A DNA stretch of 64,000 nt from a virus: the IMG/VR virus record IMGVR_UViG_3300008266_000015; one strand, given 5' to 3'. Each line of letters begins with the position of its first letter. Position 1 is the stretch's first letter. The notes beneath the pieces were generated by a model that saw only the letters and a program-made list of their open reading frames with translations, was not told the DNA's origin and ran no database searches. The position numbers were made by a program, and so were the translations under genes. This document shows positions 31,660 through 56,664 of the stretch, in pieces.

Positions 31660-31661
31660 AA

Positions 31662-35566: not shown

Positions 35567-35679
35567 AGTCAGGTGGCGGAATTGGTAGACGCTCATTCTT
35601 ATGTATATGTTATAAACGCATAAGATGATAAAAATCGAGATAACAGGTAGGTTTACAGGTTCGAATCCTGTCCTGACTA
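35567..35679 (+). ncRNA. tRNA-like element 1 (113 nt, elongated anticodon region)
   Basis: AGTCAGG/CCTGACT acceptor stem, GCGGAATTGGTAGACGC D-arm, ACAGG-TTCGAAT-CCTGT T-arm. Confidence 0.8.
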
Positions 35680-35681
35680 CA

Positions 35682-35900
35682 ATGAGTAAGAGATACTCAG
35701 CAGACTTGTCAATGTCTCATTTAAACTTGATAGGGTATTAGACTGGACATCCTGAAACGCCAGTCTCGTGGGAATAAAGGGACAGCACAAACCCTCCCAG
35801 TAGTGTGATTTTAGAGTTCATGTGGTAAGACACTAATGGTTAGAGTTTTTAAGAAAACAAAACCGTTAAAATCCACTCACCAGTAATCTCAAGGTGGGGA
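35682..35900 (+). ncRNA. Unnamed multi-hairpin RNA between tRNA-like elements 1 and 2
   Basis: TGAGTA/TACTCA, GACTGG/CCAGTC, GGGA..AGGG/CCCTCCC, TAGTGT/ACACTA, ATGGTT/AACCGT, CACC/GGTG stems; no ORF in the track. Confidence 0.55.
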
Positions 35901-35905
35901 AACAT

Positions 35906-35982
35906 AGTCAGGAGTGTAATGAGGCATGGTGCCAAGTCCTTTTAAAGGTTACTTATTACAGGTTCGAATCCTGTCCTGACTA
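35906..35982 (+). ncRNA. tRNA-like element 2 (77 nt, degenerate D/anticodon arms)
   Basis: Same acceptor and T-arm; CC-TTTTAAA-GG loop. Confidence 0.75.
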
Positions 35983-35997
35983 CTAAATAAATAAATA

Positions 35998-36855
35998 ATG
36001 AAATTTAAACTACTAAAATTAATCCCATTAAATGTATTTCTAAAATTTAGAATATGGGTAATATGTAAATTCTTACCTTATCTTTTAAACAACGAAAGAA
36101 CACCTTATTCTAAAGATGGATATGAATTATCATTTAAAGATGATTTTGATGAATTTAATAAATCAATTTGGCAAGACATGCCATATTTTGGACATAGATT
36201 TCATCCAGGCAATATTGTAAATAATGGAACTGCACCTTATCAATATCATGATTCAAGTTGTATATCTGTAAAAGATTCTATACTTAGATTAGAATGTAAT
36301 GATACACCTACCACTATTAACTATGTTGATTATAATGGAGATTATTATGGAACATTTAAAATACCATACCAAGTTGGTTGGATACAAACCATGCCTAATA
36401 CATTTCAACAAAAATATGGTTATTTTGAAATTAGATCAAAATCTCCAAATAGTGGTGGAACTTGGCCAGCGTTTTGGTTAGCATCTACTGAGGCTTGGCC
36501 TCCAGAAATTGATATATTTGAAATTTATACTTCTGATGGTCAAACACGATCTACCTCAACTATTCATTGGGGAAAAGATCCAAAACATCCAATGACTGGA
36601 TTTGGTCATACAACACTACCGTTAAATTCTGATTTCTCAGTGTTTGGATGTGATTGGAATGAAAAAAATATTAAAATATATTATAACGGTTGGTTAGTTA
36701 GAGTTTTTCCTACACCAAATGATTTTAAATATGAAATGAATATTATTATTAACAATGGTGTTCAAACTGATGAAACAGGTTTAAATAGAGAAAGCATAAT
36801 ATCACCAAATTATTTTGAAGTAGATTATGTAAAAGTTTGGAAAAAAATAAAATAG
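35998..36855 (+). CDS. Glycoside hydrolase family 16
   Basis: F.DDF, YGYFEIR, WPAFWL, catalytic EIDIFE, VDYVKVW. Confidence 0.92.
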   Translation: MKFKLLKLIPLNVFLKFRIWVICKFLPYLLNNERTPYSKDGYELSFKDDFDEFNKSIWQDMPYFGHRFHPGNIVNNGTAPYQYHDSSCISVKDSILRLECNDTPTTINYVDYNGDYYGTFKIPYQVGWIQTMPNTFQQKYGYFEIRSKSPNSGGTWPAFWLASTEAWPPEIDIFEIYTSDGQTRSTSTIHWGKDPKHPMTGFGHTTLPLNSDFSVFGCDWNEKNIKIYYNGWLVRVFPTPNDFKYEMNIIINNGVQTDETGLNRESIISPNYFEVDYVKVWKKIK

Positions 36856-36938
36856 TCAGGTGTCTGAATTGGCTAAGTACCCTGAGCCCATCTTAGTAAT
36901 GGGTAGGGGAGATACAGGTTCGAATCCTGTCCTGACTA
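36854..36938 (+). ncRNA. tRNA-like element 3 (85 nt; extended stem with CTTAGTA loop, Leu-UAG-like)
   Basis: Same acceptor and T-arm; CCCT-GA-GCCCAT/ATGGGT-AGGG stem. Confidence 0.8.
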
Positions 36939-36955
36939 CAAAAAGAATTAAAATT

Positions 36956-37171
36956 ATGAAAGGTGCAATGACATTAAAACATCGTAAAAATATTGTAAGA
37001 GAAGTGAAATCTCGTATCAGTAAAGAGATTAAGGATTACAACGATAAAGAAGTTGGACAACAAGAATCTATTCTTGATGAATATATTGAAAAAGTATGTG
37101 TTGAAAAGGGATGGGAATTAGTTCATTTTTATTGTGAAGAAGGAAAAATTTTAGATAAGATATTAAAATAG
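36956..37171 (+). CDS. Hypothetical protein (71 aa)
   Basis: Likely start MKGAMTLK; its TAG stop overlaps element 4. Confidence 0.65.
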   Translation: MKGAMTLKHRKNIVREVKSRISKEIKDYNDKEVGQQESILDEYIEKVCVEKGWELVHFYCEEGKILDKILK

Positions 37172-37268
37172 TCAGGTGGCGGAATTGGTAGACGCAGTTA
37201 GTTATAAGCACCAATAAGACTTGTAACAACGTACCGATAGTATGCAGGTTCGAATCCTGTCCTGACTT
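37170..37268 (+). ncRNA. tRNA-like element 4 (99 nt; 11-bp anticodon-position stem, variable arm)
   Basis: Leu-type D-arm; GTT-A-GTTATAAG/CTTGTAAC-AAC; GTAC/GTAT arm; same 3' end. Confidence 0.8.
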
Positions 37269-37282
37269 CAAAAATAAATAAT

Positions 37283-37519
37283 ATGAGACGATTAAACGAA
37301 AATGAGTATCTAATTTTAGAAAATTGGAAAAATGTTAAAATTGAAGATTGTGATTTAGGTATACAATTATGGTGTAATAATTTGGTTGGTAAGGGTATTT
37401 TGCGTAGATATAACAAACAATACATTTTAACAAAATTAGGAAAAAAACATACTGAGATTGGTAGACCAAAATTTACATGGGTACAAAATGATTGGTTCGA
37501 AAGTGTTGAGTTATTATAA
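37283..37519 (+). CDS. Hypothetical protein (winged-helix-like end)
   Basis: LVGKGIL...YILTKLG. Confidence 0.6.
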   Translation: MRRLNENEYLILENWKNVKIEDCDLGIQLWCNNLVGKGILRRYNKQYILTKLGKKHTEIGRPKFTWVQNDWFESVELL

Positions 37520-37522
37520 AAT

Positions 37523-37630
37523 AGTCAGGTGGCGAAATGGTAGACGCTAGAAAGAATGTAAAACAATTGAGTAATCTCTGCCAGTATCATTCACAGGGGT
37601 TACATACAGGTTCGAATCCTGTCCTGACTA
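37523..37630 (+). ncRNA. tRNA-like element 5 (108 nt)
   Basis: GCGAAATGGTAGACGC D-arm; GTAATCTCTG/CAGGGGTTAC hairpin; same 3' end. Confidence 0.8.
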
Positions 37631-37670
37631 CAAAAGGGGTTCTTTGACATAATAAGAAAGGAAAATTAAT

Positions 37671-37967
37671 ATGGAAACAATGTATTTTACTTTTGGAGTA
37701 CTAACGATGGTTGCTATGATTTTGGTTGGAGCAATTGTTTATGGTATTGTAAAGGTGTTTAAACAAGAAAAACAAATCAAAGATATCCAAAAGGATATTC
37801 AATGGAATTATAATGATATGAGTGATCGATTTAGAGATGTTTATCAGAAAATTGAAAACAGTTATGTAAATTCTAGAGACATATCTAACGCATATACAGA
37901 TATGCGGATTGATAAACTGGAAGACAAATTAACAGGAAATAGCACAAAAAAATTAATTAAAGGATAA
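37671..37967 (+). CDS. Membrane-anchored coiled-coil protein
   Basis: N-terminal transmembrane helix. Confidence 0.7.
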   Translation: METMYFTFGVLTMVAMILVGAIVYGIVKVFKQEKQIKDIQKDIQWNYNDMSDRFRDVYQKIENSYVNSRDISNAYTDMRIDKLEDKLTGNSTKKLIKG

Positions 37968-38008
37968 ATTTAACCCGTCGAAGAACCCTTTTTTATATAT
38001 TTATTAGT

Positions 38009-38275
38009 ATGGGAAAAATTTGTTTTTCAATCGTTTTTTTATTAACAGTATGGGGTTGTAAAACTAATACATTTTATACTGATCATATTATAGTTACAAA
38101 AAATGATGGATATAAAGATACTATCCAATATTCGTATTGGAATAAATTTGAAATGGATGCTTTCAAATTAGAATGGATATTAAAACAAAAAAATATCAGA
38201 ATGAAAGATGTGCAATTTATAGATTTTACCCAAGGACCAAAAATTGAATTTAACAAAAAATACCAACCCAAATGA
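38009..38275 (+). CDS. Putative lipoprotein
   Basis: Hydrophobic N-terminus ending VWGC. Confidence 0.55.
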   Translation: MGKICFSIVFLLTVWGCKTNTFYTDHIIVTKNDGYKDTIQYSYWNKFEMDAFKLEWILKQKNIRMKDVQFIDFTQGPKIEFNKKYQPK

Positions 38276-38883
38276 AGTTATTTTTAAACACATTACTGTT
38301 TTTGATTTACATAACAGGCTATAGTCAATCATTACAACTGGAGATAGTAGATAATTGTTCCTCAGGATACGTAGTTATCAATAACGATGAATCACCCGTC
38401 GGATATACAATGATTCATAATGGTGTAGATATATTATGTATTCTCCCCACAACAACAGATACTATATTTGATTTACCTAGTGGAGAATATATATTACGTT
38501 CTAATGGTGAAGCACATGAACAAGTTTCATTTACTATTTCAAACACAGTTATAGACGCTACATTACATATCCCATATACCTCAGTTTGTATTGGAGATTC
38601 ATATATAACACCGATTTTAAACATTTACTCCTCATATAATAATGTCTATTGGGATTTTGGTGATGGAAACATTTCATATGATGATATCAATCCAGTTCAC
38701 TACTATACTCAACCAGGTATATATACCTTAAAAGCAATAGTAAGTGAAGGTCAATGCTCTAAAATATTTGAAAGTAAGATTGTAGTTGAAAATATAAATG
38801 GAATTCAAGCCACAAATCGATTACAATACAGAACAACTAGTAACTATTATAATGTAGAAGGTAAAGTAGTAAAAAAACTATGA
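38272..38883 (+). CDS. Secreted PKD-domain protein with truncated CTD-like end
   Basis: Signal peptide; WDFGDG..NPVHYY.QPG.Y; YNVEGKVVK. Confidence 0.75.
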   Translation: MKLFLNTLLFLIYITGYSQSLQLEIVDNCSSGYVVINNDESPVGYTMIHNGVDILCILPTTTDTIFDLPSGEYILRSNGEAHEQVSFTISNTVIDATLHIPYTSVCIGDSYITPILNIYSSYNNVYWDFGDGNISYDDINPVHYYTQPGIYTLKAIVSEGQCSKIFESKIVVENINGIQATNRLQYRTTSNYYNVEGKVVKKL

Positions 38884-39595
38884 ACAACGATATTGAACGT
38901 AAAGAGTTTTGGGAAAAAGAGCTATCCAAAACTAAATCAAAAAAATGGGATGACAACGATTTAGAACAAGCATTTGTTTCGGCAAGAAAGTTATTTCAAA
39001 ACAAGTTACCACAATTTGAAACGTTTTATGACTATAAAAAGTCATTAGTTAATAAATAGGATTACAAGATCTATATCTGTATATTCAAGCAAATAAAAGT
39101 TATATGTTTAAATGGTTTAAAAAACAAGATAAGGACGAAAACAATACGGAAATGCTCGTATCAGAAATGGATGCGGTTGCAATAGCATTAGAACAGTCAC
39201 GTGAAGAAGGTTTAGATGTTGAGGTTGTAACATGGGCACTTCGATACATGAAGGAAAATCCATCACTCACCATATCGGAAGCAATTACAATGGGATACTA
39301 CGAGTGGGTTAAATAACAGACCAAGTTGATATTTATAACGGAACAGGTTGTGTGAACAAGTTTACTAACTTAACACACTATTCCCATGAAATATCTAATT
39401 ACTCTGCTATTGATATTTACTATATCGTGTAGTCAAGATTTCAACAAACCACGCTATCAGAAAATAATTAAAACACGACCTCACTGGCAACGGAAACAAA
39501 TTCCGTTTTACAGACAAGGAACATATCGTGATCGTAACGTGAAAAAACAAGCAAGACAGAAATTAATTCAACCGCCAACAATTAATATTAATTGA
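38880..39595 (+). CDS. Three small hypothetical proteins (38880-39059, 39104-39316, 39386-39595)
   Basis: The last has a lipobox-like TISC. Confidence 0.55.
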
Positions 39596-39654
39596 AAAAT
39601 TAGGATTACAGGATTTACATTTGTATATTCAAGCAACCTAAAAAAATAAAAGTT

Positions 39655-40467
39655 ATGTTAGAAAATTTGATTATTACACCTAAACGAGGTAGAGGTAGAC
39701 CAGCAAAAGACGCAACACAAACTATGTCAGCATTTAATCCTGAAGAAGTTAAACTAATCAGAGGCGAATCATTGAAATTCAATGAAGCACTATTTGTACC
39801 TTTCAAAACAGGTACCGAATTTGATCTAATTTTATCAACCGATGGTGGTTTAATGCCCGGCACATCGATGATGATTGCTGGTGGACCAGGATCAGGTAAG
39901 TCAACATTAGTAACAGATATGTTATCTAAGTTTACAAAGCAAGGTTTGAAATGCTTGTTAATACAAGGCGAAATGGATGAAATTGGGCATTACAAATATT
40001 GCCGAAGAATGCCTTCATTTGGTTGTGTTCAGACATTGTTTTTGAAAAACCACATGGATAACGTGAAAGAAACATTAGAATATGTTTTTAACTTAGGTTA
40101 CGACGTTATTGCAATTGATTCACTTGCGGAGGTATTAGCAATGTATCGCGATCAAAACGGTGGTTCAGCAAAACAAGCCGAATCATGGCTATTGAAATTA
40201 CAAGATTCAGTTAAAAAAGGAAACAACGCATTAGGTTATTATACATCGTTTGTTAATATTCAACAAATGACGAAAAGCGACGAGTTTGCGGGTTCAAACA
40301 GGTTAAAGCATATGATGGAAGCATATTGCGCAGTTGAACGTAGCAAAGATGGACTTGAACGTTCAATGCATTTCGAAAAGAATCGTGATTGCGATAAAGA
40401 TTACAAAATCTACTTTTCAATATATAAGGACGGAGTTCATTACGCTTTAAATCAAGCAGAAGAATAA
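39655..40467 (+). CDS. RadA/Sms-like RecA-fold ATPase with N-terminal AT-hook
   Basis: KRGRGRP; EFD.IL..GGL.PG; Walker A GGPGSGKST; IAIDS; AGS..LKH; KNR. Confidence 0.8.
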   Translation: MLENLIITPKRGRGRPAKDATQTMSAFNPEEVKLIRGESLKFNEALFVPFKTGTEFDLILSTDGGLMPGTSMMIAGGPGSGKSTLVTDMLSKFTKQGLKCLLIQGEMDEIGHYKYCRRMPSFGCVQTLFLKNHMDNVKETLEYVFNLGYDVIAIDSLAEVLAMYRDQNGGSAKQAESWLLKLQDSVKKGNNALGYYTSFVNIQQMTKSDEFAGSNRLKHMMEAYCAVERSKDGLERSMHFEKNRDCDKDYKIYFSIYKDGVHYALNQAEE

Positions 40468-40523
40468 AAACGGGGAGTACACGCTCCCCTTTCATATATT
40501 CAAGTAAATAAAAAAGATATATT

Positions 40524-41300
40524 ATGAAAAACCATTTCATTCCTATCGATAACAAAATCGATAAAGCAATTGCATTTGCTCAATCATTAGATAACAAATC
40601 GTTTCGTACACGAAACCGAATTAAACAACCCTCAGCATATATTGATACGCTGAGTGTTGTTCAGAATCTACAACAACAAGGTTGGGAAATAACAGGAGTA
40701 TGTGAACAACGCGGTAAAGATAGAAAAATATCAAACAACTATGTTCAATTGGAACACCCTGACTTTAAAATGATGAATAAAAACAAAGTCGAAGGTATAT
40801 CAAATATCTATGTTTCAAATAGTTGCGACGGAAGAAAACCGCTTAATTTAGATTTCGGAATGTATCGTTTAGTTTGTTCAAACGGATTGATTCAACGTAC
40901 CCCGTATATTGAACATAGAATTAAACATACACCGCAAAGTATTGAACGATTGCCAATGATTATGCAAAGTGTAAATAGCGCAGCACAAAGAGTCCTTAAA
41001 AGATTCGATTCATTAAAAACAAAGGAATTGAAACCTGCACAGCTGGAGGAACTAGTAAATAAAGCAGCACGTTTAAGATTTGACGATGACGTGATGGATG
41101 CTTCTCAACTACTCACTGTATATCGAGATGAAGATAAAGGAAACGATTTATGGTCGGTATATAACAGGATTCAAGAAAATTTAATCAAAACAAATATGTT
41201 ACTAGATCGTAACGGACGACCGTTAGCAGGAGTAAACGATGTTAAAAGCGACATTGTTTTAAATCAAGCATTATTTGGATTGATAGAAAATTATGCTTAA
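40524..41300 (+). CDS. DUF932/DUF945-family protein
   Basis: NSCDG, GMYRLVCSNGL, H, R.EDKGNDLWSVYNRIQEN. Confidence 0.8.
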   Translation: MKNHFIPIDNKIDKAIAFAQSLDNKSFRTRNRIKQPSAYIDTLSVVQNLQQQGWEITGVCEQRGKDRKISNNYVQLEHPDFKMMNKNKVEGISNIYVSNSCDGRKPLNLDFGMYRLVCSNGLIQRTPYIEHRIKHTPQSIERLPMIMQSVNSAAQRVLKRFDSLKTKELKPAQLEELVNKAARLRFDDDVMDASQLLTVYRDEDKGNDLWSVYNRIQENLIKTNMLLDRNGRPLAGVNDVKSDIVLNQALFGLIENYA

Positions 41301-41357
41301 AAATTAGGATTACAAAATCAATTATCATATATTTAATCAAACGAAAAAATAAAAGTT

Positions 41358-42158
41358 ATGCTAGATCTAAATTCAAACACATTCCTTAGTAAGGAGCAAA
41401 TTAAATCAAAAGCAAATTCGATTTTTGCTACTAAAGGTGCTGAAAACACCTCACAACACTATTCACACATTCCAACATTCAAAATCATTGAAGATATGGA
41501 ATTGTTAGGATGGAAAGTTTCTGATGTTAAAGAGGTTAAAGCGCGTAAAAACGCTGGATTCCAAAAACATTTAGTTGTATTTCGTAATGAGGAAATTGTT
41601 ATTGATGGTAAAGATGGAGACACAGTATTTCCACAAATCCTATTAACAAATAGTTCAGACGGAAAAAATGCATTTACATTCCGTGCCGGACTTTTCCGTC
41701 TTGTATGTGAGAATGGTTTAGTTATTTCAACACAGGATTTTGCTGATTTAAAAATCAGACATATGGGTTATGACTTTGAAAAGTTACAGAAAACCATTAC
41801 CAATATTGTTGAGAAACTTCCACTCACAGTTGAGTCAATGAATCGTTTTAAAGAAACACAATTGGAGGAGGAACAAATCCTACAATTCGCTAAAGATGCA
41901 CTTACAGTACGTTTCGGTGAAGAGGAAATGGAACGCATTACAATTGATTACACTACATTTATTCAACCAACACGTAGAGAAGATGCAGGAAATGACTTAT
42001 GGTCAGTGTTTAACCGCATTCAAGAACGAGTAATGGATGGAGATTTCCAATACAGTTATGCAGCCAAAATACGTAAAGCACGTAAAATCAAGAACTTCAA
42101 TCAAGATTTAGATTTGAATTCAAGACTATATGAGTTAGCTACCACATATTGCCTATAA
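41358..42158 (+). CDS. DUF932/DUF945-family protein (paralog)
   Basis: NSSDG, AGLFRLVCENGL, RH.G, RREDAGNDLWSVFNRIQE. Confidence 0.85.
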   Translation: MLDLNSNTFLSKEQIKSKANSIFATKGAENTSQHYSHIPTFKIIEDMELLGWKVSDVKEVKARKNAGFQKHLVVFRNEEIVIDGKDGDTVFPQILLTNSSDGKNAFTFRAGLFRLVCENGLVISTQDFADLKIRHMGYDFEKLQKTITNIVEKLPLTVESMNRFKETQLEEEQILQFAKDALTVRFGEEEMERITIDYTTFIQPTRREDAGNDLWSVFNRIQERVMDGDFQYSYAAKIRKARKIKNFNQDLDLNSRLYELATTYCL

Positions 42159-42219
42159 AAAATAAATTGGGGAGCTTGGACTACAAGTTCCCCTTTTATA
42201 TATTTAAAATAAAAAAGTT

Positions 42220-42651
42220 ATGGAAAAAGAATTTGTACCTTATGAACAAGCATTAGCTTTAAAAGAATTAGGATTTAATGAAGAGTGTTTAACATCTTAT
42301 CATTATAATGGAACATTAATAGATATGTGGAGTGCAGTGGGTTTTGTTACAAATAGTAGTTTAATAAACCCTGAACAATTTAATGCTAATAATAATTCTA
42401 AACTTTTAAAAGATTATATTGATAATCCTTTTACAGCAGCACCAACATTCTCACAAGCATTTAGATGGTTTAGAGAGAAGTATAATTTACATGGGATAGT
42501 TTCATATTACGGAAAAAATCAATGGGATATAGAACTACTTGATTACAAAGGAAACCAATTAGTTGAAATAGAAAACAACACATTTTGGACTTATGAAGAA
42601 GCAGAACTTGCTTGTTTAAATAAACTAATTGAAATTATAAAACAGAAATAA
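42220..42651 (+). CDS. Hypothetical protein, KEFVPYEQALALKELGF family
   Basis: Paralog of 7327..7686. Confidence 0.75.
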   Translation: MEKEFVPYEQALALKELGFNEECLTSYHYNGTLIDMWSAVGFVTNSSLINPEQFNANNNSKLLKDYIDNPFTAAPTFSQAFRWFREKYNLHGIVSYYGKNQWDIELLDYKGNQLVEIENNTFWTYEEAELACLNKLIEIIKQK

Positions 42652-46777: not shown

Positions 46778-46825
46778 TTAGGATTACAAAACCTTTAATT
46801 GTATATTTAAATAAAAATAAGAGTT

Positions 46826-47456
46826 ATGACGCCAAAAGAAAAAGCAGATGAATTATTTAGAAAAATGTATCAAGTACGTTCTGTAGCGGCAAGTGATATT
46901 ACTAAACATTTTGCAAAACAAAGTGCATTAATTGCAGTTGATGAGATTATAAAAGAATATGGAACATATTTCAAAGTAGAAGTAGAAGGTAAATATGTAT
47001 CTTATTGGCAACAAGTTAAACAAGAAATTGAGAAACTATGACACCAAAAGAAAAAGCAGATGATTTACTGAAGAAAATGCTAGGTAAAAATCCAAACATC
47101 CAAGACGGAGTTTCAGCCATAGATACTATACAAGCTAAACTATGCGCTTTAGTAGCAGTTGATGAAATAATGAGCACCACTGATGCGGAAGACCATATTA
47201 TTTTGTATAACTATTGGCAAAAAGTAAGAAATGAAATTGAGAAACTATGACACCAAAAGAAAAAGCAGAACAATTAGTACACACATACCGAATGCTATTT
47301 ATGGATGTTGGGGGCGATTATGGGGAGGAAATACTAGTGTCTGTATTATCTAAACAGTGTGCTTTAATAGCAGTTAAAGAAATAAGATACACCCATTACG
47401 ATGCAATAACTACAATGTGGTGGAATGATGTAGAACAAGAAATAAATAAGTTATGA
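46826..47456 (+). CDS. Three tandem MTPKEKA paralogs (46826-47041, 47038-47250, 47247-47456)
   Basis: Shared MTPKEKA, AL.AV.EI and W..V..EI.KL; near-identical DNA at the junctions. Confidence 0.85.
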
Positions 47457-48130
47457 AAATCTGGCATATAAGTGACACACACACCTACCACGGACTATTA
47501 AATATTCCAAAGGATATTGATATGGTTATTCATTCAGGTGACTGTTCTAATCCACAAGATATAGTTAAGTCCCATAGTGAGATTTTAGAGTTTATAAATT
47601 GGTTTGCTTTGCTACCTATTAAATATAAAATATTTGTAGCTGGAAACCACGATGTTGCTATTGAACGCAAATGGATTACTAGAGACCATTTCATTGAAAA
47701 GGATATAGTGTATCTTGAAAACGAATCAATTACAATTGATGGTATCAATATATGGGGTTCTCCATTTACACCTTCGTTTGGTGAAGGTTGGGCATTCAAT
47801 AAAAAGAGAGACAAACTACACAACTTGTGGGCTACTATTCCTGATGATACAAATGTAGTAGTGGTTCATGGTCCACCTAAAGGTATTTTAGATCTATCAT
47901 ATGATACAACAAATAAACTAGAATTCTGTGGATGTAATGCATTTAAAAAACGAATGCTTCAATTACAACCTGAACTGTGTTTGTTTGGGCATATTCACAA
48001 CTGTGAAGATATAATTAATGCAGGCACAACTAAATTATCAGCATATAAAACAGTATATTCAAATGGTTCAGTAGTGACTGATGGTAAATTTGGTAAATTA
48101 AGTTCAAACGGAAATATATTAGAAATATGA
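47453..48130 (+). CDS. Calcineurin-like metallophosphoesterase
   Basis: SDTH, HSGD, GNHD, HGPP, FGHIH. Confidence 0.93.
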   Translation: MKIWHISDTHTYHGLLNIPKDIDMVIHSGDCSNPQDIVKSHSEILEFINWFALLPIKYKIFVAGNHDVAIERKWITRDHFIEKDIVYLENESITIDGINIWGSPFTPSFGEGWAFNKKRDKLHNLWATIPDDTNVVVVHGPPKGILDLSYDTTNKLEFCGCNAFKKRMLQLQPELCLFGHIHNCEDIINAGTTKLSAYKTVYSNGSVVTDGKFGKLSSNGNILEI

Positions 48131-51100
48131 AAGTAAAACAACTAATAGAACACTTACAAACACTTGATCCTGAATTATATGTATTTAGACCTGGATATGA
48201 AGCTGGTTTAGAGGATATAAAGGATACTAGTAGTGTAGTTCATGTTGAATTGGATTATAACAAAGAATGGTATTATGGACCACATGAACAAGTATTAAGT
48301 CCTGAAATATTTCCAAACGCAGTAAAAGGAATAGTATTATAGACTAGGACTACAAAATCTTTTAACATATATTTAAACAACTTAAAAAAATAAAGGTTAT
48401 GACGGTACAAGAATTAAAAGAAATACTTGATGAAATGAACCCAGATATGGAAGTAAAATTTTCATACAGTTATGGAGACTATTGGCGAACCCAAGTAGCA
48501 GCAAACATTTCAGATGTCGATTATGGGTATGTAAGTTATAGTGACTACCACCAAATGGATAAGGTATCTGAAGATGAAAATGAAGATACTAAGTATGTAG
48601 TTTTACTAAGTTAATTTGTTAGGATTACAAAATCTGTTAATGTATATTTAATCAACTTAAAAAAATAAAGGTTATGAACGGATTAACACAATCAGAATTC
48701 GAAATTTTGCTTAAACTAAAGCAACTAAAACAAAACAAAAAGTACATTGCTTTAAAACTACACCCTCCAATTGGAAACAGTACCATTCAGAAAGAAAACA
48801 ATCGGATGTTTATCAATGAAGGCCGAGATGGAAAATGGGAAGACATCTCAGAGAGTTTCTATGATATAGTAGTAGGAATTTACGATTCACGTTCTTAAAA
48901 AATAAAGGTTATGGCAACACGTAGTTACATTGGAAAACGTCTTGAAGACGGAAAAATTCGTTACATTTATTGTCACTTTGATGGATATCCATCACACAAT
49001 GGAGAAATCCTAACTGAATATTATACAACAGAAGACAAAGTCACTGATTTACTTGATTTAGGAGATATGAGTAGTTTAGAGCCATCTCTTTCAGAATGTA
49101 AAGTATATGATGATGGAAATGTTGCGATTGGAGATATGAGTGATTTTCTTGATGGGAATGTTTCATATTACTATTTGTTTGAAAATAATGAATGGCAATG
49201 TTTTGATTATAAAGGAGATCAAGTAACTCTCTAGGATTACAAGATTTACAAACGTATATTTAATCAACTTAAAAAAATAAAAGTTATGAAAAACGAAAAA
49301 ACAGAACGCATTGAAAGTCTTATAGATCTATCAGCACTTGCTTGGTTCAATACAGCAGCAAACACAATTGTTGTGGATATGATGAATGAAGGATGGGAGT
49401 ATAGTGATGCAAGAGAATATCTATTTGATAAAATTGATGAAATCATTGAAGCACATAAAAGACAAGATCGATTGGAAAATAAATTCTCCCCACTAATTGG
49501 AAAAAAATGTATTGTAATTGATGAGGTAATAGAGAAAAATAATGTAAAAATACATACAATTAGTGGAATTGGAGAAAATGGTGGATTGTGTTTTGAAGAT
49601 TACAATGGGGAAACTATTTTTTGTTTTGAATATGATGAAGACTTATTTGTAGAAGGATACAAAGCATGGATTCATCCAGATGAAGTATCTATTCAACTAA
49701 TAGATTAGGATTACAAAGTTTACGTTCATTTATTTAAATAAAAAAATAAAGGTTATGAAAAAAACATCTCAATCAATAGATGGAACATCGTTCCACAATG
49801 TAGTAGTTAAATGTTCATTATCAACCCTAACAAAAGTATTAGGCAATCCCGATTGTTCAGGAAATGATGGTGAGAATAAGATCAATTTTGAATGGGAAAT
49901 GGAAACAAATGACGGAGATGTATTTACAGTATATGACTGGAAGGAATATAGATCATTGAATGAAAATGAACTAATCGAATGGCACATTGGTGGAACAAGT
50001 AGGAGTATAACTGAACAAGCCGCTCGTGAAATTAGGGATGCAATAGCAAAAATCTAAAGTGTTAGGATTACAAGATTTATAAACGTATATTTAATCAACT
50101 TAAAAAACATAACTTATGACTGAATTAGAAAATTTAAAAATCGAGCTATTTAATCTTGTTGAACGTGTTAGTGCGCTATCAACTAAAAATGAAGGAACAT
50201 TTTCATTCACAAAAGAACAACTACTAAGCTATTCAAAGTTTCTAATTGATGAAGCGGTTGAAAGCATAACAACCGGTATTAAAAATGATATAACTGAAGA
50301 TTCGTTAGATGAAGTAATTGAATTAGAAATGGGTTATAATAGAGATATACGAGTTACAATTGATGAAAGAGGATTCCATAGCCAAATAGTTTCAGTGATT
50401 GAAGATTCAGTTGATTCAAACATAGAGGATTCAGTTGCTAGCGCTTTGGAACATGTGTTTCCAACCACTCAAGATTAAAATAAATAAAAGGGTAGTTCAT
50501 TAGGACTACCCTATTTTTATTTGTATATTTACAGTATGAAAGAAGATAAGAAGATAAATGGATTAAGTGAACGTCACATTGCACAAATAGTACGACGTAA
50601 AATGATTCAACGCTTCAAACCATCAGCAAAAGTATATAAACGCAACAAAAACAAAAACACAGAGCTATGAGACAACTAATCGGAAAATTTGAAGTAGTGG
50701 ATTCAATGGGGAATCTTAAGACACTAAAAGTATTTACAAACCGCGAAGAAGGTACTGTGGGGTTCTCCTTAACATCCAAATCAGGGACTTCGTTTTCAAT
50801 CAGCAATATGCAATGTGGATGGAGAGGACCACACCTACCTGATAACACATATGAATATCCAACTAACAAAGCACTAATGAAAGCAGTGAAAGAGGCTGTA
50901 AATGGAGGTGTTTGTAAAGTACAAGAAGAGAAATTATTTATTGATGTAATTTAAAAATAATGGTTATGAAAGAATTAATGTATAACCCAAGTACTGGTGA
51001 TTTATTAGCAACTAAAGCTAAAACAGATGGGAAAGTGTATCAAAGTTACTTAACTAAAGGATATATTAAAATTGGTTGGGTTGATGGGTTTAATGTAGTG

Positions 51101-52493
51101 GTTGGAGGAATTGGAGTTAAATTATAATTTATTAGGATTACAAGTTAAATTAATGTATATTCAATTAACTTAAAAAATAAAGATTATGAAAGAAACACTT
51201 GAAGAAGCTGCTGAAGAATTTATAAAAGGTTGGGGTGGTTTAACTGACTCTAAAAATTCATTTATTGAAGGTGCTAAATGGCAAGCTGAAAGAATGTATA
51301 GTGAGGAAGATTTAATTAGTTTTGCACACTTTTATTTCACAGAAGAATTTAATTCAACAATGCAAACTTCTAAATCAACAGATAAAATTTTACAAGAATG
51401 GTTTGAACAATTTAAAAAGAAATAATATGAAAGTATTTAGATTTACAACAGAGGTACAATCCATTAAAACAATACAATATATTATTGAAGCTGAAAATAA
51501 AGAAGAAGCAGCTAAAATACTCCAAAGCGGAAGTGAACGTGATGAAGGTGAAGAGATTGATGAAGATATCTATTGGGGAACAGAAACAATTATAGAAAGT
51601 AAACTAATTGAGGAACTATGAACGAACTAAAAATACATGGCTACTATCAGTGGTCCAATGCTTGTGGTTATGGAGTGATCCTTTCCGATTGTGGAGACTC
51701 AGCAAAGCTGGTACTTGAAAATCAATCAACAACTGATTGGTTAGAAATTGAATATGTTTTTAACGAGGACACTGATGGATTTGATCCAATCATTGATCCA
51801 AGTAGATACAACGTGCCTTTAAATTTGGTAATGCGAGCTTACTAGGACTACAAAGTTTATTACTGTATATTTAAACAACTTAAAAAACGTAAAAAGATGA
51901 AAAAATCAAATTCAAGTGTGTTTGTAAACACAACTATTACGAAACAATTCCCTAACGGACCAAAAGTAACTGCTGAATTTCAAACCATTGTTTGTTTGAA
52001 TAAAAGTGATGATTGGGTTATTGATTGTATTGAGCCAATGGATATTAATGAAATTGAAATGATGGGAAAAACAATCACCGATTATGAAAATAAACGTAAT
52101 ATAATTGAACATTTCAAATTAATGGGAGTTGATTTATGGGACGAAGTTGAAACGGATATGCAGAAAATCATTGATGCGAATAGTGATGCAGTTACGTTTG
52201 TAAAAGAACAAACCGGAATTATATTACCAACAAAACAAAGCAAACCAAATGATGTTGTTGAATTAACAAGACAGGAATTGGAATATGTAATAATTATGAA
52301 TGATCTAAAACAGCAATTCGGTTCATTAGGTTACTACAACGATAAACGAAAAACAACACGTCGCATCAAGATATATTCAGGTCCAAAAGAAGCAATTCAA
52401 AGATACATGTATAAAAAATATCCACATATCAAAACATATTTCAATGTTGGATATCCATGGTCAAGTGGATTATGTTTTAGGTTACCACTTTGA
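48127..52493 (+). CDS. Cluster of about 14 short hypothetical early ORFs, mostly one per promoter
   Basis: Includes MATRSYIG..YCHFDGYP (48911), a KETLEEAA member (51186) and MKVKQL/MTVQEL family members (48127, 48399). Confidence 0.65.
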
Positions 52494-52500
52494 TAATAAT

Positions 52501-52528
52501 GGGGACGTAAACGTCCCCTTTTTTATTT
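52501..52528 (+). terminator. Intrinsic terminator
   Basis: GGGGACGT-AA-ACGTCCCC plus T tract. Confidence 0.8.
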
Positions 52529-52730
52529 TACTAGGACTACAAGGTTTACATTCGTATATTTAAGTATAAGAAAAAAAAGATATGAAAACTAAAACGAAAC
52601 AACAGATACTAGCTGAGATGCTACAAAAAGAATTAAACTCAACAGAACAAATGTGGGAAGAAGGTAAATCACATGCCTTCATAATTGGATATTTAAAAGG
52701 TCTAATCAAAATAACCATTTCAGAACTAAA

Positions 52731-53039
52731 ATGATATATCTACCTATAGCAACTCAACATATCCCACCTGCCATTGCAAATACAAGTCAAGGTAGATACG
52801 CTATAATGGATGGTAAATGGTACGAAATTGGACAAACCATTACATTGGAGTTTGTTAGGAAACATTGGAAACCAAAACCAATTGAAACTAATTCAATTAA
52901 AACATTTGCTATTAAGAGCTCGAATGGAAAAGAACAGTACACCGTTACTGTGAATGGGAAATATTGGCAATGTAATTGTCCGAGTTGGAAAAACCCATGT
53001 AAACACATTGGTATAGCTAAAGCTCAAATTAAGGAATAG
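52731..53039 (+). CDS. SWIM zinc-finger protein
   Basis: Y.VTV....WQCNCP....PCKH. Confidence 0.75.
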   Translation: MIYLPIATQHIPPAIANTSQGRYAIMDGKWYEIGQTITLEFVRKHWKPKPIETNSIKTFAIKSSNGKEQYTVTVNGKYWQCNCPSWKNPCKHIGIAKAQIKE

Positions 53040-53089
53040 GACTACAGAATTTACAGTTGTATATTTAAGTAAACGAAAAAATAAAAGTT

Positions 53090-55414
53090 ATGAAAAGCAA
53101 ATTCACTCAGGTTTCATCAAATGAAATCAAACTAGAATTAATCCATAATTATTTGACTCAATGTGATCGTTCATTTCTATTAATAGAGCAAAATAGAGGT
53201 GTGTATAGTATAGGTAGGGCTGTTCAACTATATCAGTTGGATGGGCTTAAGAAAGAACACATCAAGGAATTAGCGTGGACAAAGGATGATAATCATGGTG
53301 GAATGAGAGACTCAGATGCACACCATAAAGGACTCACAACATTAGATGGTTGTAAAAGTGTAGCATTGGATTATTTGGAAAAAATATTAGGAGTAGAAAT
53401 TGAATAGGATTACAAGTTAAACAGTTGTATATTTAATTAACTTAAAAAACAAAAGTTATGAAAACGACAGAACTAAAACAAGGATACTCAATCTTTGGGA
53501 ACAAAGGAAATGTATGGAGCAATACAGCTCATATCTACAAAAGTGGAACAGGGAACTTATGTGGTACACCTGCACTATCAAATAACTGGGCTAGGATTGA
53601 ACAAGTAGAGCATGTTGGATGTCCGGAATGTTTAGAAAAGTATAAATTAGAAAACTAAATATATGTACATAGCAATTAATAAAGCAAACCATTTGGAATT
53701 TCATAGTTTCGAATGGACGGAAGATGACAGGTTGATTGTGAATGGAGAAGAAGTAAAACCTGAAGAATGGGATATAGTAGAGGTATCAATGGTATATCAG
53801 GATTATTGTTGTTAAAAAAATAAAGGTTATGACAAGAAAACAATTCCACAAAGCAATCAACAAAGATGTATATGAATATATGAATCAACACTATCCCGAA
53901 TTCGACATTGATGATAGTGAAGGATATGGTCGTGTGTATTTTGTGGATACCACATCCTCTAAACCATGGGATGATAGTATAGAATACCATCAATCAAGAC
54001 ATGATTTGTGTACACTGAATGGAGCTAGTGATAAGGTAAAAGCCGTTGAGCAAGAACTTGAGAGTTGGATAAACGCTTTAATTAAACAATATCAATAGGA
54101 TTACAAGGTTTATAAGCGTATATTTAGTCAACCTAAAAAATAAAAGTTATGAAAACAAATGTAAACTTAGAAATGTATCAAAACATTGATAGCATTTCAG
54201 AAAAACTAACAACAAGGATTACACAGTTAGAACTACTAATTGATGAATATTGTGAGAGATTCGTAACTTCACATGAAGATTTAGAACAAGTTACTAAATT
54301 CAACGAAATGTTAAATGACTTGTATGAGGATCTAGATTCAATTACTGAGGTTAAAAGCGTGTTATATAATTAATTAGGACTACAAATTAAACAGTTGTAT
54401 ATTTAATTAACTTAAAAAACATAAAAAATGAAAATAACTAAAGCAAATAAGCTCCCCGGAACACAATATTTAGAACTATTAGATGTAGCAAAGTATTTAC
54501 GTGCAGTGTACGTTAGTGCCTTGACAGAAGTAGAAAAACAACATTACAGAAGAGTATATACTGAAGCTAGAACAAATGGATTACGTAGTAAAATGGTAGG
54601 TGCTACCTCGTTTAAAGCAATGGATAAGGTAATGAAAGTAGCTCAAAATGAATATCCACATTTGGACATTAAAATTGCAAAGAATAAACCAATGTATTCA
54701 TTTGCATTACATGGTGTTAATATATTTGTTAAAGTAAAAAAATAGGAATACCCTTTAATTAATCATATATTTAAGTAAACGAAAAAATAAGAGTTATGAA
54801 AATAAAAGACCTAATTAAACACCTCGAAACATTAGATCAAGAAAAAGAACTAGTTGTGATTGCAACGGACCCAACAGATTGGGACTATGGTTTAGTTGTA
54901 AATGAAACAACAATTAGATTGGAGGAGATCTGGCCTTCTGAGGAGAATGGATTAGAAGAAGAATTAGGTGAACCTGATTACCATCATGATAAAGGAATTG
55001 ATTGTTATGTTATTAGATTAGATTGTTAGGATTACAAAATAAACAATAGTATATTTAAATAAAAATAAGATATGACAATATTATTAATTTGGTTAGGTGG
55101 ATTTCTATTAGGAGCTGGGATCACATTATTTATTACAAACAAAAAGCAACAATAATATTCAGAATATGAAAATATATCAAGTATATAGTGGGGAAGAGGA
55201 TAAACATGGATTCCAGAGAGAATACTACATAGCAACATATGTTAGTAAGGAAAAAGCATTACAACATTGTGAACGTATAGTGGAGGAAACTCCATTGTAT
55301 GGGGATAAATTAGAGGAGGTAGAAGGGAGTTGGGGAAAATGTTGGGATGCTATTGGGTGGGGTAGAGTAACGATTTGTGCTTTATATGAGAGGGAAGTGA
55401 ATGTGGAGGTATGA
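53090..55414 (+). CDS. Cluster of short hypothetical early ORFs (53090, 53458, 53663, 53829, 54149, 54428, 54796, 55166)
   Basis: Most lie behind a TAGGA promoter and A-rich leader. Confidence 0.65.
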
Positions 55415-55570
55415 CAAGTTCGTATATATGGATATATGGATATACGTATAGTTGGGAGTATGTGACCTAGGGATCAACGGGAATGGGGTGCAGGGATTGG
55501 GGAGACACAACCCCTTCCCACACCTCCCCACCCCACTTTGCATCGACAAAATATATATGTATATACAACG
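55415..55570. other. G-tract/C-tract inverted element flanked by TATATA-type motifs (origin-like)
   Basis: GGGAATGGGGTGCAGGGATTGGGGAG followed by CCCCTTCCCACACCTCCCCACCCC; no credible gene. Confidence 0.45.
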
Positions 55571-55648
55571 ACACACGCAAAATACAGTAAAACTTGCGGG
55601 GATTACATGGTTTTTTAACATATATTTAACTCAATAAATAAAGAAAAT

Positions 55649-55873
55649 ATGAAAACAGATGTTAATTTAGATATGTACAGAAACGTTGATATAATTTCAG
55701 CGGAACTAAAAATAGCTATTGATGCTCTTGAACAAGATGTTGATGATTTCTGTTCCAATTTTGTTAAAACACAAGAGGACTTGCAACTAGTTTCATTGTT
55801 CCAGTCCATGTTGAATGATTTATACAATGATTTGGAAAACATTAACAACATAAGAGGTGTATTATACAACTAG
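55649..55873 (+). CDS. Hypothetical protein, paralog of 54149..54373
   Basis: MKT.VNL.MY.N.D.IS..L ... MLNDLY.DL ... VLYN. Confidence 0.75.
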   Translation: MKTDVNLDMYRNVDIISAELKIAIDALEQDVDDFCSNFVKTQEDLQLVSLFQSMLNDLYNDLENINNIRGVLYN

Positions 55874-55950
55874 GAATACAAAAAATACGTTCGTATATTT
55901 ATCTCATAAGAAAAGCATTTAAAAACGTTTAATTAATTGATTAAGCATAT

Positions 55951-56023
55951 AGTCAGGTGGCGGAATGGATGGGCAACGTCAACTAATTAATAGATACAGG
56001 TTCGAATCCTGTCCTGACTACCA
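55951..56023 (+). ncRNA. tRNA-like element 6 (73 nt including encoded CCA)
   Basis: AGTCAGG...ACAGGTTCGAATCCTGTCCTGACTACCA; no canonical anticodon arm. Confidence 0.78.
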
Positions 56024-56024
56024 A

Positions 56025-56460: not shown

Positions 56461-56529
56461 ACTGTTCAAATACTAGGATTACATAACATATATTCGTATA
56501 TTTAAATAAACAAAAAAACAAAAACATCT

Positions 56530-56631: not shown

Positions 56632-56664
56632 GATTCCAGAATTTTAGTTCGTATATTAATTAAA

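Follow-up and report, generated by a model that had tools for sequence, protein, structure and literature searches.

A family of tRNA-shaped elements in uncultured phages combines a constant leucine-tRNA-like frame with exchangeable, structured middles

The closest described counterparts of the elements reported here are RNA1 and RNA2 of phage T5 and rnaC of phage T4, stable RNAs with unknown function. T5 RNA1 and RNA2 (NC_005859 30501-30644 and 32959-33083) carry the annotation "tRNA-like stable RNA with unknown functions"; at 144 and 125 nt they combine, like our family, tRNA-type ends with a long non-tRNA middle, and T5 RNA1, RNA2 and RNA3 likewise lie in the phage tRNA region. RNA1 carries the same Leu-type D-arm (CCGGAAUUGGUAGACGG), the RNA2 T-arm (CAGGUUCGAAUCCUG) is identical to that of the family, and two features of the RNA2 middle, a second T-loop hairpin and GUAAGUCC, recur in the variable middles ("cargos") of the family. 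The T5 RNAs differ in their acceptor stems, and hence lack the 23-mer shared by our elements; they are single genes of a phage with an enterobacterial host rather than a multi-copy constant frame, and RNA2 is conserved over its full length among T5-like phages, with no cargo swapping seen, unlike the family. In T4, the tRNA cluster closes with genes for two small stable RNAs, species 1 and species 2 (rnaC and rnaD; NC_000866 70908-71171). The 3′ end of rnaC consists of a tRNA-type T-arm and acceptor strand, as in our elements, but rnaC is tRNA-like in this portion only, rnaD shows no T-loop, and the two neither resemble the family in sequence nor form a modular family; in Rfam they score only weakly (17.5 bits to tRNA-Sec).

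Other systems share parts of the architecture. The engineered tRNA scaffold reportedly swaps the anticodon arm for an RNA of interest, which is trimmed and stabilized by tRNA-processing enzymes (Ponchon and Dardel 2007); the design principle is the same, but that scaffold is a laboratory construct, whereas the family is natural, multi-copy and evolving, with cargo exchanged between phages. In the tRNA-like domain of tmRNA (RF00023), as here, the ends form an acceptor stem and T-arm around a functional-RNA middle without an anticodon arm, but tmRNA has the G3:U70 alanine identity, a tag ORF, pseudoknots and a length of about 360 nt. YrlA-type bacterial and phage Y RNAs are reportedly non-coding mimics of the tRNA top half handled by tRNA enzymes (Chen et al. 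2014, PMC4201824). Compared with a tRNA, YrlA has a circular permutation, and its partner is the Ro60 (TROVE) protein. The family RNA is instead closed by its acceptor stem, no window element matched an Rfam Y RNA, and no TROVE protein was found among the scanned window ORFs. Plant mitochondrial t-elements and tRNA punctuation (PMC1920247) place tRNA-like structures between genes, where RNase P and RNase Z set RNA ends; they have no conserved exchangeable cargo, whereas the middles of the family are under selection.

The window, that is, the whole 64,000-nt stretch of lake-phage DNA analysed, contains six elements. They and their context are listed below, with element lengths counted including the discriminator.

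35567-35679 (113 nt), + strand: copy 1, putative tRNA-shaped RNA gene; Leu-type D-arm, ~62-nt middle, discriminator A
35680-35905 (226 nt), + strand: stretch between copies 1 and 2, without an ORF of ≥50 aa
35906-35982 (77 nt), + strand: copy 2, second scaffold subtype; T-arm and acceptor stem as in the other copies
35998-36855, + strand: GH16 glycoside hydrolase gene (Pfam PF00722, E = 2e-14), between copies 2 and 3
36854-36938 (85 nt), + strand: copy 3, four-way junction; one arm over-long (6+4 bp), D-arm degenerate
37170-37268 (99 nt), + strand: copy 4, Leu-type D-arm, ~50-nt middle, discriminator T
37523-37630 (108 nt), + strand: copy 5, Leu-type D-arm, ~60-nt middle, discriminator A
55951-56020, with CCA 55951-56023 (70 nt + CCA), + strand: copy 6, minimal form

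An earlier note, made from the sequence alone, had described six elements that begin with AGTCAGG and share an identical 23-mer; all six were confirmed at their positions on the + strand. The 23-mer CAGGTTCGAATCCTGTCCTGACT occurs exactly at window positions 35656, 35959, 36915, 37245, 37607 and 55997 (+ strand), had no match in 100 shuffles and is not expected by chance, and no further copy was found in the 64,000 nt. AGTCAGG forms the 5′ strand of every copy and is always preceded by T, while the middles are mutually unrelated. Also upheld were a Leu-type D-arm (GCGRAAT(T)GGTAGACGC) in three copies (1, 4 and 5), to which we add a partial version in copy 6, a discriminator A in five of six copies (T in copy 4), and an encoded CCA in copy 6 only. 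The claim that no copy has a canonical anticodon arm held with a refinement, in that copy 3 (fold z = -2.57) has a 7-nt loop, CUUAGUA, on its over-long 6+4-bp stem.

The individual copies vary around this plan. The middle of copy 1 contains a long hairpin, and its acceptor stem is present in both the MFE and centroid folds; that of copy 5 has a 10-bp hairpin (fold z = -2.17). Copy 6, isolated 18 kb from the others, has no arm at all at the anticodon position. The 5′ body of copy 2 differs from that of copies 1, 4 and 5 and follows the subtype pattern AGTCAGG-AG-YGTAATGAGG...CCAAGTCC...AAGGTTAC; copy 2 is not an orphan but a member of a second conserved scaffold subtype (subtype B), for which alignment with nine relatives gave double compensatory changes in 6 of 18 predicted pairs. 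The GH16 gene is context and lies outside the RNA family, although its ORF ends inside copy 3: its TAG stop is made of the T before copy 3 and the first two bases, AG, of that copy. Copy 4 likewise overlaps the TAG stop of a small upstream ORF. The 226-nt stretch between copies 1 and 2, which had no Rfam match, would be freed if both copies were processed.

ARAGORN reported a single window element, copy 2, as tRNA-Leu(taa) with the anticodon at position 38, a non-standard register. The Rfam tRNA model scored copies 1, 4, 5 and 6 at 37-40 bits (38.7, 40.2, 38.4 and 36.8, respectively; gathering score 29), with copies 2 and 3 below the gathering score. In the two alignments printed, 38 nt of copy 4 and 12 nt of copy 6 remained unaligned at the anticodon-arm site. 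The earlier note had named a match to a described Rfam family as grounds for refutation; this is met only formally, as the tRNA model fits the frame and leaves a large gap at the anticodon arm.

The family comprises at least 493 elements in uncultured phage contigs. Samples were chosen by exact 16- or 23-nt matches and limited to 120 rows. A search with the 23-mer, which the earlier note had proposed for related phages, found exact matches in IMG/VR and in metagenomes, with at least 120 contigs in each. Among ~185,000 species genomes it occurred in only 18 MAG contigs, all of the variable-middle type and none a cellular tRNA; it was absent from cultured phages of the collection searched, and the family was not found in cellular tRNA sets. 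The hosts of these phages are likely freshwater Bacteroidota. The family is very large and apparently undescribed; neither Rfam nor the literature searched contained it as a family of its own.

The frame is a class II tRNA-Leu reduced to its top half and elbow: a 7-bp acceptor stem (AGUCAGG/CCUGACU), U8, a Leu-type D-arm with G18G19, U48, a T-arm (CAGG-UUCGAAU-CCUG) and mostly A73. About 88% of elements (252/284) and 42 of 60 distinct 3′ halves have A as the discriminator, leaving G, T or C in about 12-30% of members. True tRNAs nearest to the D-arm region of the frame are tRNA-Leu in 23 of 33 cases, and the genuine tRNA-Leu genes of these phages differ from the frame in their acceptor and T arms. 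Across hundreds of phage contigs the frame is under RNA-level selection, as seen in compensatory T-stem changes and mainly G-U-compatible acceptor-stem changes. In a sample anchored on the 5′ 16-mer only, T-stem changes comprised 27 two-sided pair-keeping against 9 pair-breaking cases, 29 of 35 changed T stems were still fully paired (mean 16, maximum 23, after partner shuffling), and changes in the acceptor 3′ strand kept a G-U pair in 14 of 25. Recognition by RNase P, RNase Z or the CCA enzyme does not account for an acceptor-stem sequence that hardly varies, because those enzymes accept many sequences; across such diverse phages, this near-invariance hints either at a further, sequence-specific partner or at homogenization by recombination. 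Minimal members of 53-70 nt, copy 6 included, carry little or no cargo, so the frame may also act on its own.

The cargos reach roughly 190 nt, whereas some elements lack any arm, and they are extremely diverse, with 433 of them falling into 326 clusters, 263 of which are singletons; the cargo of copy 1 is unique in this set. Those of up to 150-190 nt contain GNRA loops, kink-turn-like boxes and extra T-loops. Several observations show that the cargos are under RNA-level selection and argue that they are functional rather than filler. Retained cargo diverges by 2.6%, against 14.0% for flanks and 1.5% for the frame (p = 9e-16); cargo folding surpasses that of genomic controls (mean z -0.93 vs -0.33, p = 2e-5); and in one cargo family 7 of 30 pairs show double compensatory changes while loops are invariant. 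Recent transfer of whole elements, rather than purifying selection, may partly explain the low divergence. A cargo search found no common motif, known RNA family or antisense target, which leaves a functional cargo without an identified function.

Cargo exchange is modular. One syntenic locus, whose flanking proteins are 87-98% identical between phages, holds cargos of 38-81 nt that are unrelated to one another, and DNA identity stops exactly at ...GGYGGAA and restarts at ACAGGTTCG... Two of these cargos reappear in unrelated contigs, the flanks of most same-cargo pairs are unrelated, and one ~65-nt cargo is also found free-standing without any frame. Frame conservation and covariation, together with cargo covariation and slow cargo divergence, support the earlier reading of the elements as selected tRNA mimics rather than decayed tRNAs. 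Among the three roles then suggested, carrier for variable RNA cargo fits best, given the wholesale syntenic replacement, the recurrence of the same cargo elsewhere and the frame-less cargo; a decoy of tRNA-targeting defences remains a hypothetical role. The element probably works in part as a processing signal, since its end signals equal those of true tRNAs. Compared with 298 true tRNAs of the same contigs, elements have T at -1 in 77% (vs 66%) and CAA or CTA at positions 74-76 in 61% (vs 62%), and an encoded CCA is uncommon in both, so that elements and true tRNAs of the same phages share flanking end signals. The family is located within or next to phage tRNA arrays and shares their strand. 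At about 138 loci examined, the commonest neighbour family was DUF932 (18 loci).

Pure RNA punctuation, in which the frames would be RNase P/RNase Z cut signals splitting polycistronic phage transcripts and the middles tolerated filler, is the strongest rival, though an unlikely one. Mitochondrial tRNAs and t-elements punctuate transcripts in this way. In its favour, elements are intergenic and co-directional with genes, 43 of 140 begin ≤10 nt from the upstream ORF end (15 of 140 overlap its TAG stop) and 47 of 140 have an ORF start ≤30 nt downstream; the window copies alternate with the GH16 gene and small ORFs, end signals match those of real tRNAs, and A-rich trailers (ACAAAA, ACTAAA) would give downstream genes unstructured leaders. 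Against it, retained cargos are five times better conserved than flanks, their stems covary around invariant loops, the largest are structured at 150-190 nt whereas filler would be expected to shrink, and one cargo occurs alone elsewhere. Many elements also occur within tRNA arrays or are separated by >100 nt from the nearest ORF, and the TAG overlap is trivial because T at -1 is followed by AG at +1 and +2. An aminoacylation role is somewhat less plausible still, with charging itself untested: the frame would be charged by or bound to host LeuRS as a sponge, a leucine donor outside normal decoding or a tmRNA-like ribosome-entering RNA. The E. coli LeuRS identity set comprises A73, a Leu-type D-arm with G18G19, and U48, all retained in the frame; the enzyme reportedly requires neither anticodon nor variable arm (minimalist tRNAs, Larkin et al. 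2002), and strict frame conservation suggests a sequence-reading protein partner. However, the canonical Leu D-arm is missing from subtype B and from copies 3 and 6, all of which retain the same acceptor and T arms, the discriminator deviates from A in the minority of members given above, and charging leaves hundreds of differing conserved cargos without a reason. Identity with tmRNA itself was rejected, as G3:U70, a tag ORF and pseudoknots are missing and neither ARAGORN nor Rfam gave a tmRNA match.

A DNA-level element, in which the inverted ends AGTCAGG...CCTGACT would act as attC-like or MITE-like recombination or insertion sites that shuffle genes, with tRNA likeness as a relic, is harder still to sustain. 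Sequence exchange does break at the arms, small accessory genes in variable regions are flanked by elements, some copies (L148, L152, L167) have insertions or deletions at the arms, and integron attC sites have a similar size range. Yet the syntenic locus swaps the element interior and not the flanking genes, tRNA tertiary nucleotides (U8, G18G19, U48, the UUCGAAU loop) are conserved, compensatory and often G-U stem changes indicate RNA pairing, orientation is always that of transcription and the tRNA arrays, and no integrase or transposase accompanied the elements at the loci examined. Degenerate or intron-bearing tRNA-Leu, that is, pseudogenes lacking an anticodon arm or true tRNAs with a spliced middle, can practically be ruled out. 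The frame is tRNA-Leu-like, four of six copies pass the Rfam tRNA gathering score and ARAGORN calls some family members tRNAs, but the anticodons it assigns are random (Leu, Pro, Glu, Ser, Ile, Tyr, "???") and oddly positioned, and minimal members have no arm able to bear one. Middles of 25-190 nt are below group I intron size, no element had an Rfam intron match, cargo removal would leave no anticodon stem-loop, and pseudogenes are not expected to keep a selected frame and cargo across hundreds of phages. We consider it very likely that the six window elements are neither decoding tRNAs, intron-bearing tRNAs nor pseudogenes.

We favour, with moderate confidence, a natural tRNA scaffold in which exchangeable structured RNA modules are cut out and stabilized via the tRNA maturation pathway, although transcription, processing and stability are inferred. 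Each element would be the gene for a small non-decoding tRNA-shaped RNA of two modules, frame and cargo. In a tRNA, the top half and elbow are the part recognized by RNase P, by the enzymes that trim the 3′ end and by the CCA-adding enzyme. Because this is the part that is kept, we infer that the RNA would be cut from long phage transcripts at exact ends, given CCA and made stable to the degree of a tRNA; no expression, end-mapping or CCA data stand behind this for any member. The anticodon/variable-arm site would be a socket that receives an RNA which is unrelated and folds independently. Selection maintains the cargos even as they are swapped wholesale between phages, likely by recombination in the two short constant arms, a mechanism that is itself inferred and may yield a very large, open-ended repertoire. 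Quick cargo turnover between near-identical phages may point to host- or competitor-specific targets. The element would in effect parallel, in nature, the engineered tRNA scaffold used to express small RNAs, and on balance phages seem to use the frame as a carrier of exchangeable small RNAs whose job is unknown.

The 23-mer CAGGTTCGAATCCTGTCCTGACT has six exact sites in the window, all on the + strand (35656, 35959, 36915, 37245, 37607, and 55997), against none in shuffled sequence. The heptamer AGTCAGG sits 46–89 nt 5′ of each site and is complementary to the final seven bases of the 23-mer, which gives a 7-bp acceptor stem in addition to the T-arm CAGG-TTCGAAT-CCTG. Acceptor and T arms are present in 6/6 copies, and no additional family copies were found in the window. 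The elements are as follows:

35567–35679, + strand: copy 1, Leu-type D-arm, discriminator A
35906–35982, + strand: copy 2, D-arm missing or altered, discriminator A
36854–36938, + strand: copy 3, D-arm missing or altered, discriminator A
37170–37268, + strand: copy 4, Leu-type D-arm, discriminator T
37523–37630, + strand: copy 5, Leu-type D-arm, discriminator A
55951–56020, + strand: copy 6, D-arm missing or altered, discriminator A, and the only copy followed by an encoded CCA (to 56023)

The Leu-type D-arm reads GCGRAAT(T)GGTAGACGC. We refer to the constant leucine-tRNA-like part (acceptor stem, D-arm, and T-arm) as the frame, and to the unrelated middle at the anticodon-arm/variable-arm site as the cargo. 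The Rfam tRNA model (RF00005) scored copies 1, 4, 5, and 6 at 37–40 bits, so that 4/6 pass the gathering score of 29, and its alignments (copies 4 and 6 only) left 38 and 12 nt unaligned at the anticodon-arm site. Minimum-energy folds of the isolated elements contained both acceptor and T arms in 5/6 cases (z −1.3 to −2.6), copy 1 forming the acceptor stem without the T arm, and showed either an over-long hairpin or no arm at the anticodon position. ARAGORN called only copy 2, with an anticodon at position 38 and out of register, and found no true tRNA genes in the 64-kb window. The six-element finding is real and not an artefact.

A canonical decoding tRNA would match the acceptor, T-arm, and part of the D-arm, but no 5-bp/7-nt anticodon arm lies in register (anticodon 34–36), and ARAGORN anticodon calls on relatives are a random assortment. 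If the middle were a group I intron within a tRNA, ∼200 nt or more would be expected, against observed middles of 25–190 nt and no Intron_gpI match in any element; minimal members without any anticodon arm also speak against an intron-bearing tRNA. A tmRNA reading is contradicted by the absence of G3:U70 (pair 3:70 is U-A in the window elements), by lengths of 70–113 nt, and by the results of ARAGORN and Rfam, neither of which called a tmRNA in the window.

A YrlA-type or other Y RNA acting with Ro60 found no support, there being no Rfam Y RNA match and no Ro60/TROVE domain among the window ORFs scanned (20 individually, including all seven of ≥ 400 aa, plus a bulk scan of 77 ORFs in which 25/45 matched families were listed), among which no RNA ligase, RtcB, or CCA-adding enzyme was seen either. 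An integron attC-type site would carry the R″/R′ core RYYYAAC...GTTRRRY; the ends here are AGTCAGG/CCTGACT, and no recombinase occurs in the window or among recurrent neighbours. The pseudogene reading is rejected along with the intron-bearing tRNA, tmRNA, Y RNA, and attC-like site, and the main inference of the earlier note, that these are selected tRNA mimics and not decayed tRNAs, holds.

Contigs with the exact 23-mer number at least 120 in IMG/VR and at least 120 among metagenomes. Among ∼185 000 prokaryote species (one genome each), it occurs in only 18 contigs, all of them MAG contigs, mostly of Chitinophagia, Saprospirales, Flavobacterium, and Sediminibacterium; 18/18 carry the variable-middle type and none a cellular tRNA. 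It was not found in cultured phages, where a short-query search returned only generic T-arm matches to ordinary tRNAs. The pooled family comprises 493 elements (474 distinct) of 38–246 nt, with up to 14 at a single locus, often within or beside phage tRNA arrays of 19–25 genes and on the same strand; the true tRNA-Leu genes in those arrays differ from the family frame in their acceptor and T arms. The window elements belong to this very large, phage-only family of tRNA-framed RNAs with a modular build, of which no description was found in the literature searched.

Several further features on the sampled contigs were recorded separately. A non-canonical tRNA-like gene at L168:9716–9800 (− strand), called ‘tRNA-Stop(tta)’ by ARAGORN, combines a Leu-type D-arm with the acceptor AGAUGAG, so the architecture reaches beyond the AGUCAGG type. 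Three elements (L148:1912–2110, L152:5114–5310, and one on the − strand of L177 from reverse-complement position 604) have the 3′ acceptor strand interrupted, between TCCT/TC and GACT, by a 40–100-nt insertion that contains a strong hairpin; this may be a small element that inserts secondarily and has the frame as its target. A freshwater-1 RNA match (RF02979; 70.1 bits, gathering score 72) lies at L016:4124–4186 (+ strand), inside a phage tRNA array with family elements, and on phage contig L009 (7609–8193, − strand) a tmRNA match (49 bits, 7832–8193) abuts a group I intron match (98 bits, 7609–7837).

Because the first sample had been chosen on the 3′ half, we re-sampled the family by the 5′ 16-mer alone, and recovered the exact 23-mer in 77/140 elements with a recognisable 3′ half. 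The remaining elements vary at T-loop positions 57 and 59, show compensatory T-stem swaps (CAGG/CCTG to CCCG/CGGG, CTGG/CCAG, CAAG/CTTG, or GATGG/CCATC), and carry mostly G-U-retaining changes in the acceptor 3′ strand. Across 60 distinct 3′ halves, pairing was kept by two-sided changes in 27 cases and broken by 9 changes, and 29/35 altered T stems were still fully paired, compared with a mean of 16 and a maximum of 23 when partners were shuffled (1000 trials). A second frame subtype, subtype B (AGTCAGG-AG-YGTAATGAGG...CCRAGTCC...GGTTGC), to which window copy 2 belongs along with 15 or more other elements, shows double compensatory changes in 6/18 predicted pairs.

When the D-arm region was compared with 298 true tRNAs from the same contigs, tRNA-Leu was the nearest in 23 of the 33 best matches, and U48 and A73 are mostly retained across the family. 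Selection acts on the frame at the RNA level, and the frame is of leucine type. In E. coli, the features that mark a LeuRS substrate are A73, a Leu-type D-loop with G18G19, and the 15:48 tertiary pair. Copies 1 and 5 show these features, as does most of the family, with no data on leucine charging itself; copy 4 has the Leu-type D-arm but U73.

The cargos are diverse as well as structured and selected. Similarity clustering of 433 cargos gave 326 clusters, of which 263 hold a single cargo, and the cluster count rose from 209 to 326 as cargos grew from 252 to 433. The window cargos long enough to cluster, those of copies 1–5, are all singletons, yet copy 2 belongs to subtype B. Cargos fold modestly better than randomly chosen genomic controls (mean z −0.93 vs −0.33, p = 2e-5). 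GNRA-type loops and additional T-loop hairpins occur among them, and one family has kink-turn-like CUGA/UGAUGA boxes. A cargo family shared by six contigs shows double compensatory changes in 7/30 pairs (three in the cargo closing stem, four in the T stem), with invariant single-stranded blocks such as GUGGUAUAAAU. In nine phage pairs with a shared cargo and homologous flanks, divergence was 2.6% in the cargo and 1.5% in the frame, compared with 14.0% in the flanks (p = 9e-16); the low cargo value could partly reflect whole elements that were transferred recently.

No dominant motif common to unrelated cargos emerged, no cargo matched a known RNA family in Rfam at E < 0.5, and a search within the window for antisense targets of its six cargos gave none above chance. 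Against non-element phage DNA, 38/46 cargo match sites proved to be family members with variant frames, the exceptions being a free-standing module and an upstream motif. Clustering of all ORFs within ∼5 kb revealed no protein family that accompanies the elements: the commonest neighbour, DUF932, occurs at 18 of ∼138 loci, followed by terminase and T5orf172, and ORFs directly adjoining elements are mostly singletons.

Exchange of cargos is visible in one phage lineage, in which an element has constant neighbours, a 127-aa ORF on one side and a 215-aa ORF on the other. Identity is 87–98% for the flanking proteins and 92–100% for the 3′ half of the frame, and the cargos are unrelated (38, 41, 45, 58, 65, or 81 nt). 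DNA alignments run at ∼90% identity until ...AGTCAGGTGGYGGAA, are then lost, and are restored from ACAGGTTCGAATCC...; cargo identity at this locus is either >0.9 or at random level, with nothing else. Two cargos from the locus recur in unrelated contigs (that of L119 in L042 and that of L100 in L191), and a given cargo usually turns up with unrelated flanks. Homologous recombination in the constant arms is inferred as the simplest route of exchange.

A ∼65-nt module (GUAUAAAACAAAGGGCAGGGCAC…CCAUUAC) occurs in frame in three contigs (L093, at 2808–2925 on the + strand, L081, and L228) and free-standing, without a frame, at L311:5288–5352 and L009:8455–8531 (both − strand); it reached no Rfam family at gathering scores at the L009 locus, the only one scanned. 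The exchange and the free-standing module together indicate that cargos act as autonomous RNA modules that the frame can carry. As a separate observation, a conserved motif of ∼45 nt (…GGACAGCCAAGACACCTGTAAGTTGGATAAATTAGGGTG…) lies at L303:2140–2184 and in at least nine other contigs (L150, L101, L232, L229, L149, L305, L102, L182, and L192); in the flanks examined, it adjoins an element in L303 and L101 and not in L102, L182, or L192, and it may serve as a promoter or leader or represent a further small RNA.

We compared end signals between family elements and true tRNAs from the same contigs. The base at −1 is T in 77% of elements and 66% of tRNAs, positions 74–76 are CAA or CTA in 61% and 62%, and CCA is encoded in 2.5% and 8%, respectively. 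Bacterial RNase P prefers U at −1. Where a tRNA gene does not encode CCA, the 3′ end is trimmed by an endonuclease or exonucleases and completed by the CCA-adding enzyme. From the shared end signals and these textbook rules we infer that the elements mature like the phage's own tRNAs; this step is an inference and is not shown. The element also ‘supplies’ the TAG stop of the upstream gene in 15/140 cases, including the window's GH16 gene (35998–36855, + strand, between copies 2 and 3) and the next ORF, an overlap that arises simply because T at −1 is followed by AG at +1/+2.

The G+C content of the window is ∼30%, and its genes lie almost without exception on the + strand. Among the encoded proteins are a family B DNA polymerase, a Gp44-type clamp loader, Cpn60, and Cpn10, together with sugar-nucleotide enzymes, glycosyltransferases, PKD and YadA-like proteins, a GH16 hydrolase, and a CHU_C type IX secretion domain. 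Our reading is a large Bacteroidota phage of T4-like type. No close relative was found among annotated phages. The series of PKD, YadA-head, and CHU_C (type IX secretion signal) proteins at 29726–34479 and 38272–38883 points to Bacteroidota as hosts and suggests that the phage encodes surface or secreted proteins.

Around the array, the non-coding stretch at 35432–35526, just 5′ of copy 1, has 76% identity (E = 2e-7) to an unannotated region of Leptolyngbya phage Lbo-JY46 (8662–8755) and may represent a conserved leader RNA of the array or the promoter region at its head. The 226 nt between copies 1 and 2 (35680–35905), with no ORF of ≥ 50 aa and no Rfam match, would come free with defined ends if both neighbouring elements were processed, which is itself inferred. 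The motif GTTCGTATAT (≤ 1 mismatch) has 12 sites in the window against 5.1 expected, six of them within 52550–58899, all on the + strand and one ∼60 nt upstream of copy 6, and a further one at 35460, ∼105 nt upstream of copy 1; it could be part of a phage promoter. Promoter and terminator scans gave counts at shuffle level, and a guessed promoter pattern was not enriched.

Among known systems, the closest in type are RNA1 and RNA2 of the T5 tRNA region, annotated ‘tRNA-like stable RNA with unknown functions’. Like the family, they have tRNA-type ends around a non-tRNA middle and lie among phage tRNA genes, a setting shared with the family relatives and not with the window. RNA1 has a Leu-type D-arm identical to the family's and a middle of ∼80 nt; RNA2 has an identical T-arm and a middle with a second T-loop hairpin and GUAAGUCC. 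The acceptor stems differ from the family's, however, and the middles are unrelated. T5 found no support as a cultured model of cargo swapping: RNA2 is conserved full-length across T5-like phages. T4 rnaC ends in a T-arm and acceptor strand and is otherwise dissimilar, the engineered tRNA scaffold, tmRNA, YrlA Y RNAs, and mitochondrial t-elements each have only single features in common with the family, and a 2026 preprint on three bacterial tRNA-mimic families describes motifs other than this family's.

We lean towards a reading in which the tRNA frame would serve as a processing and stability carrier for exchangeable RNA modules, with the job of the cargos left open and processing inferred. 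A bolder reading, held with low confidence, is that phages infecting freshwater Bacteroidota run a natural plug-and-play RNA display system. The constant leucine-tRNA frame would borrow the host's tRNA maturation and stability machinery, and the hypervariable socket would bear RNA aptamer or decoy modules swapped between phages via recombination in the constant arms. The system would then be an RNA counterpart of hypervariable anti-defence gene islands, each cargo being directed against a different host or rival factor.

If expressed and processed as inferred, the family is a large reservoir of small structured phage RNAs, no member of which has a known function; hundreds of distinct cargo types sit on one frame in a few hundred contigs, and sampling is far from saturation. 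On the same condition, the unexplained ‘stable RNAs’ encoded in the tRNA regions of T4 and T5, still annotated as being of unknown function, would acquire a name and a rationale, and nature would be shown to employ the same trick as the engineered tRNA scaffold. The constant arms would also offer an experimental handle for amplifying every cargo in an environmental sample and pulling down binders. Bacteroidota are not known to possess Hfq, and their small-RNA biology is little known. At one locus in near-identical phages, cargos are either conserved or replaced outright, without drift. Such a signature is usual for phage–host conflict loci, and this pattern makes these RNAs candidates for RNA-based host takeover or counter-defence in Bacteroidota.
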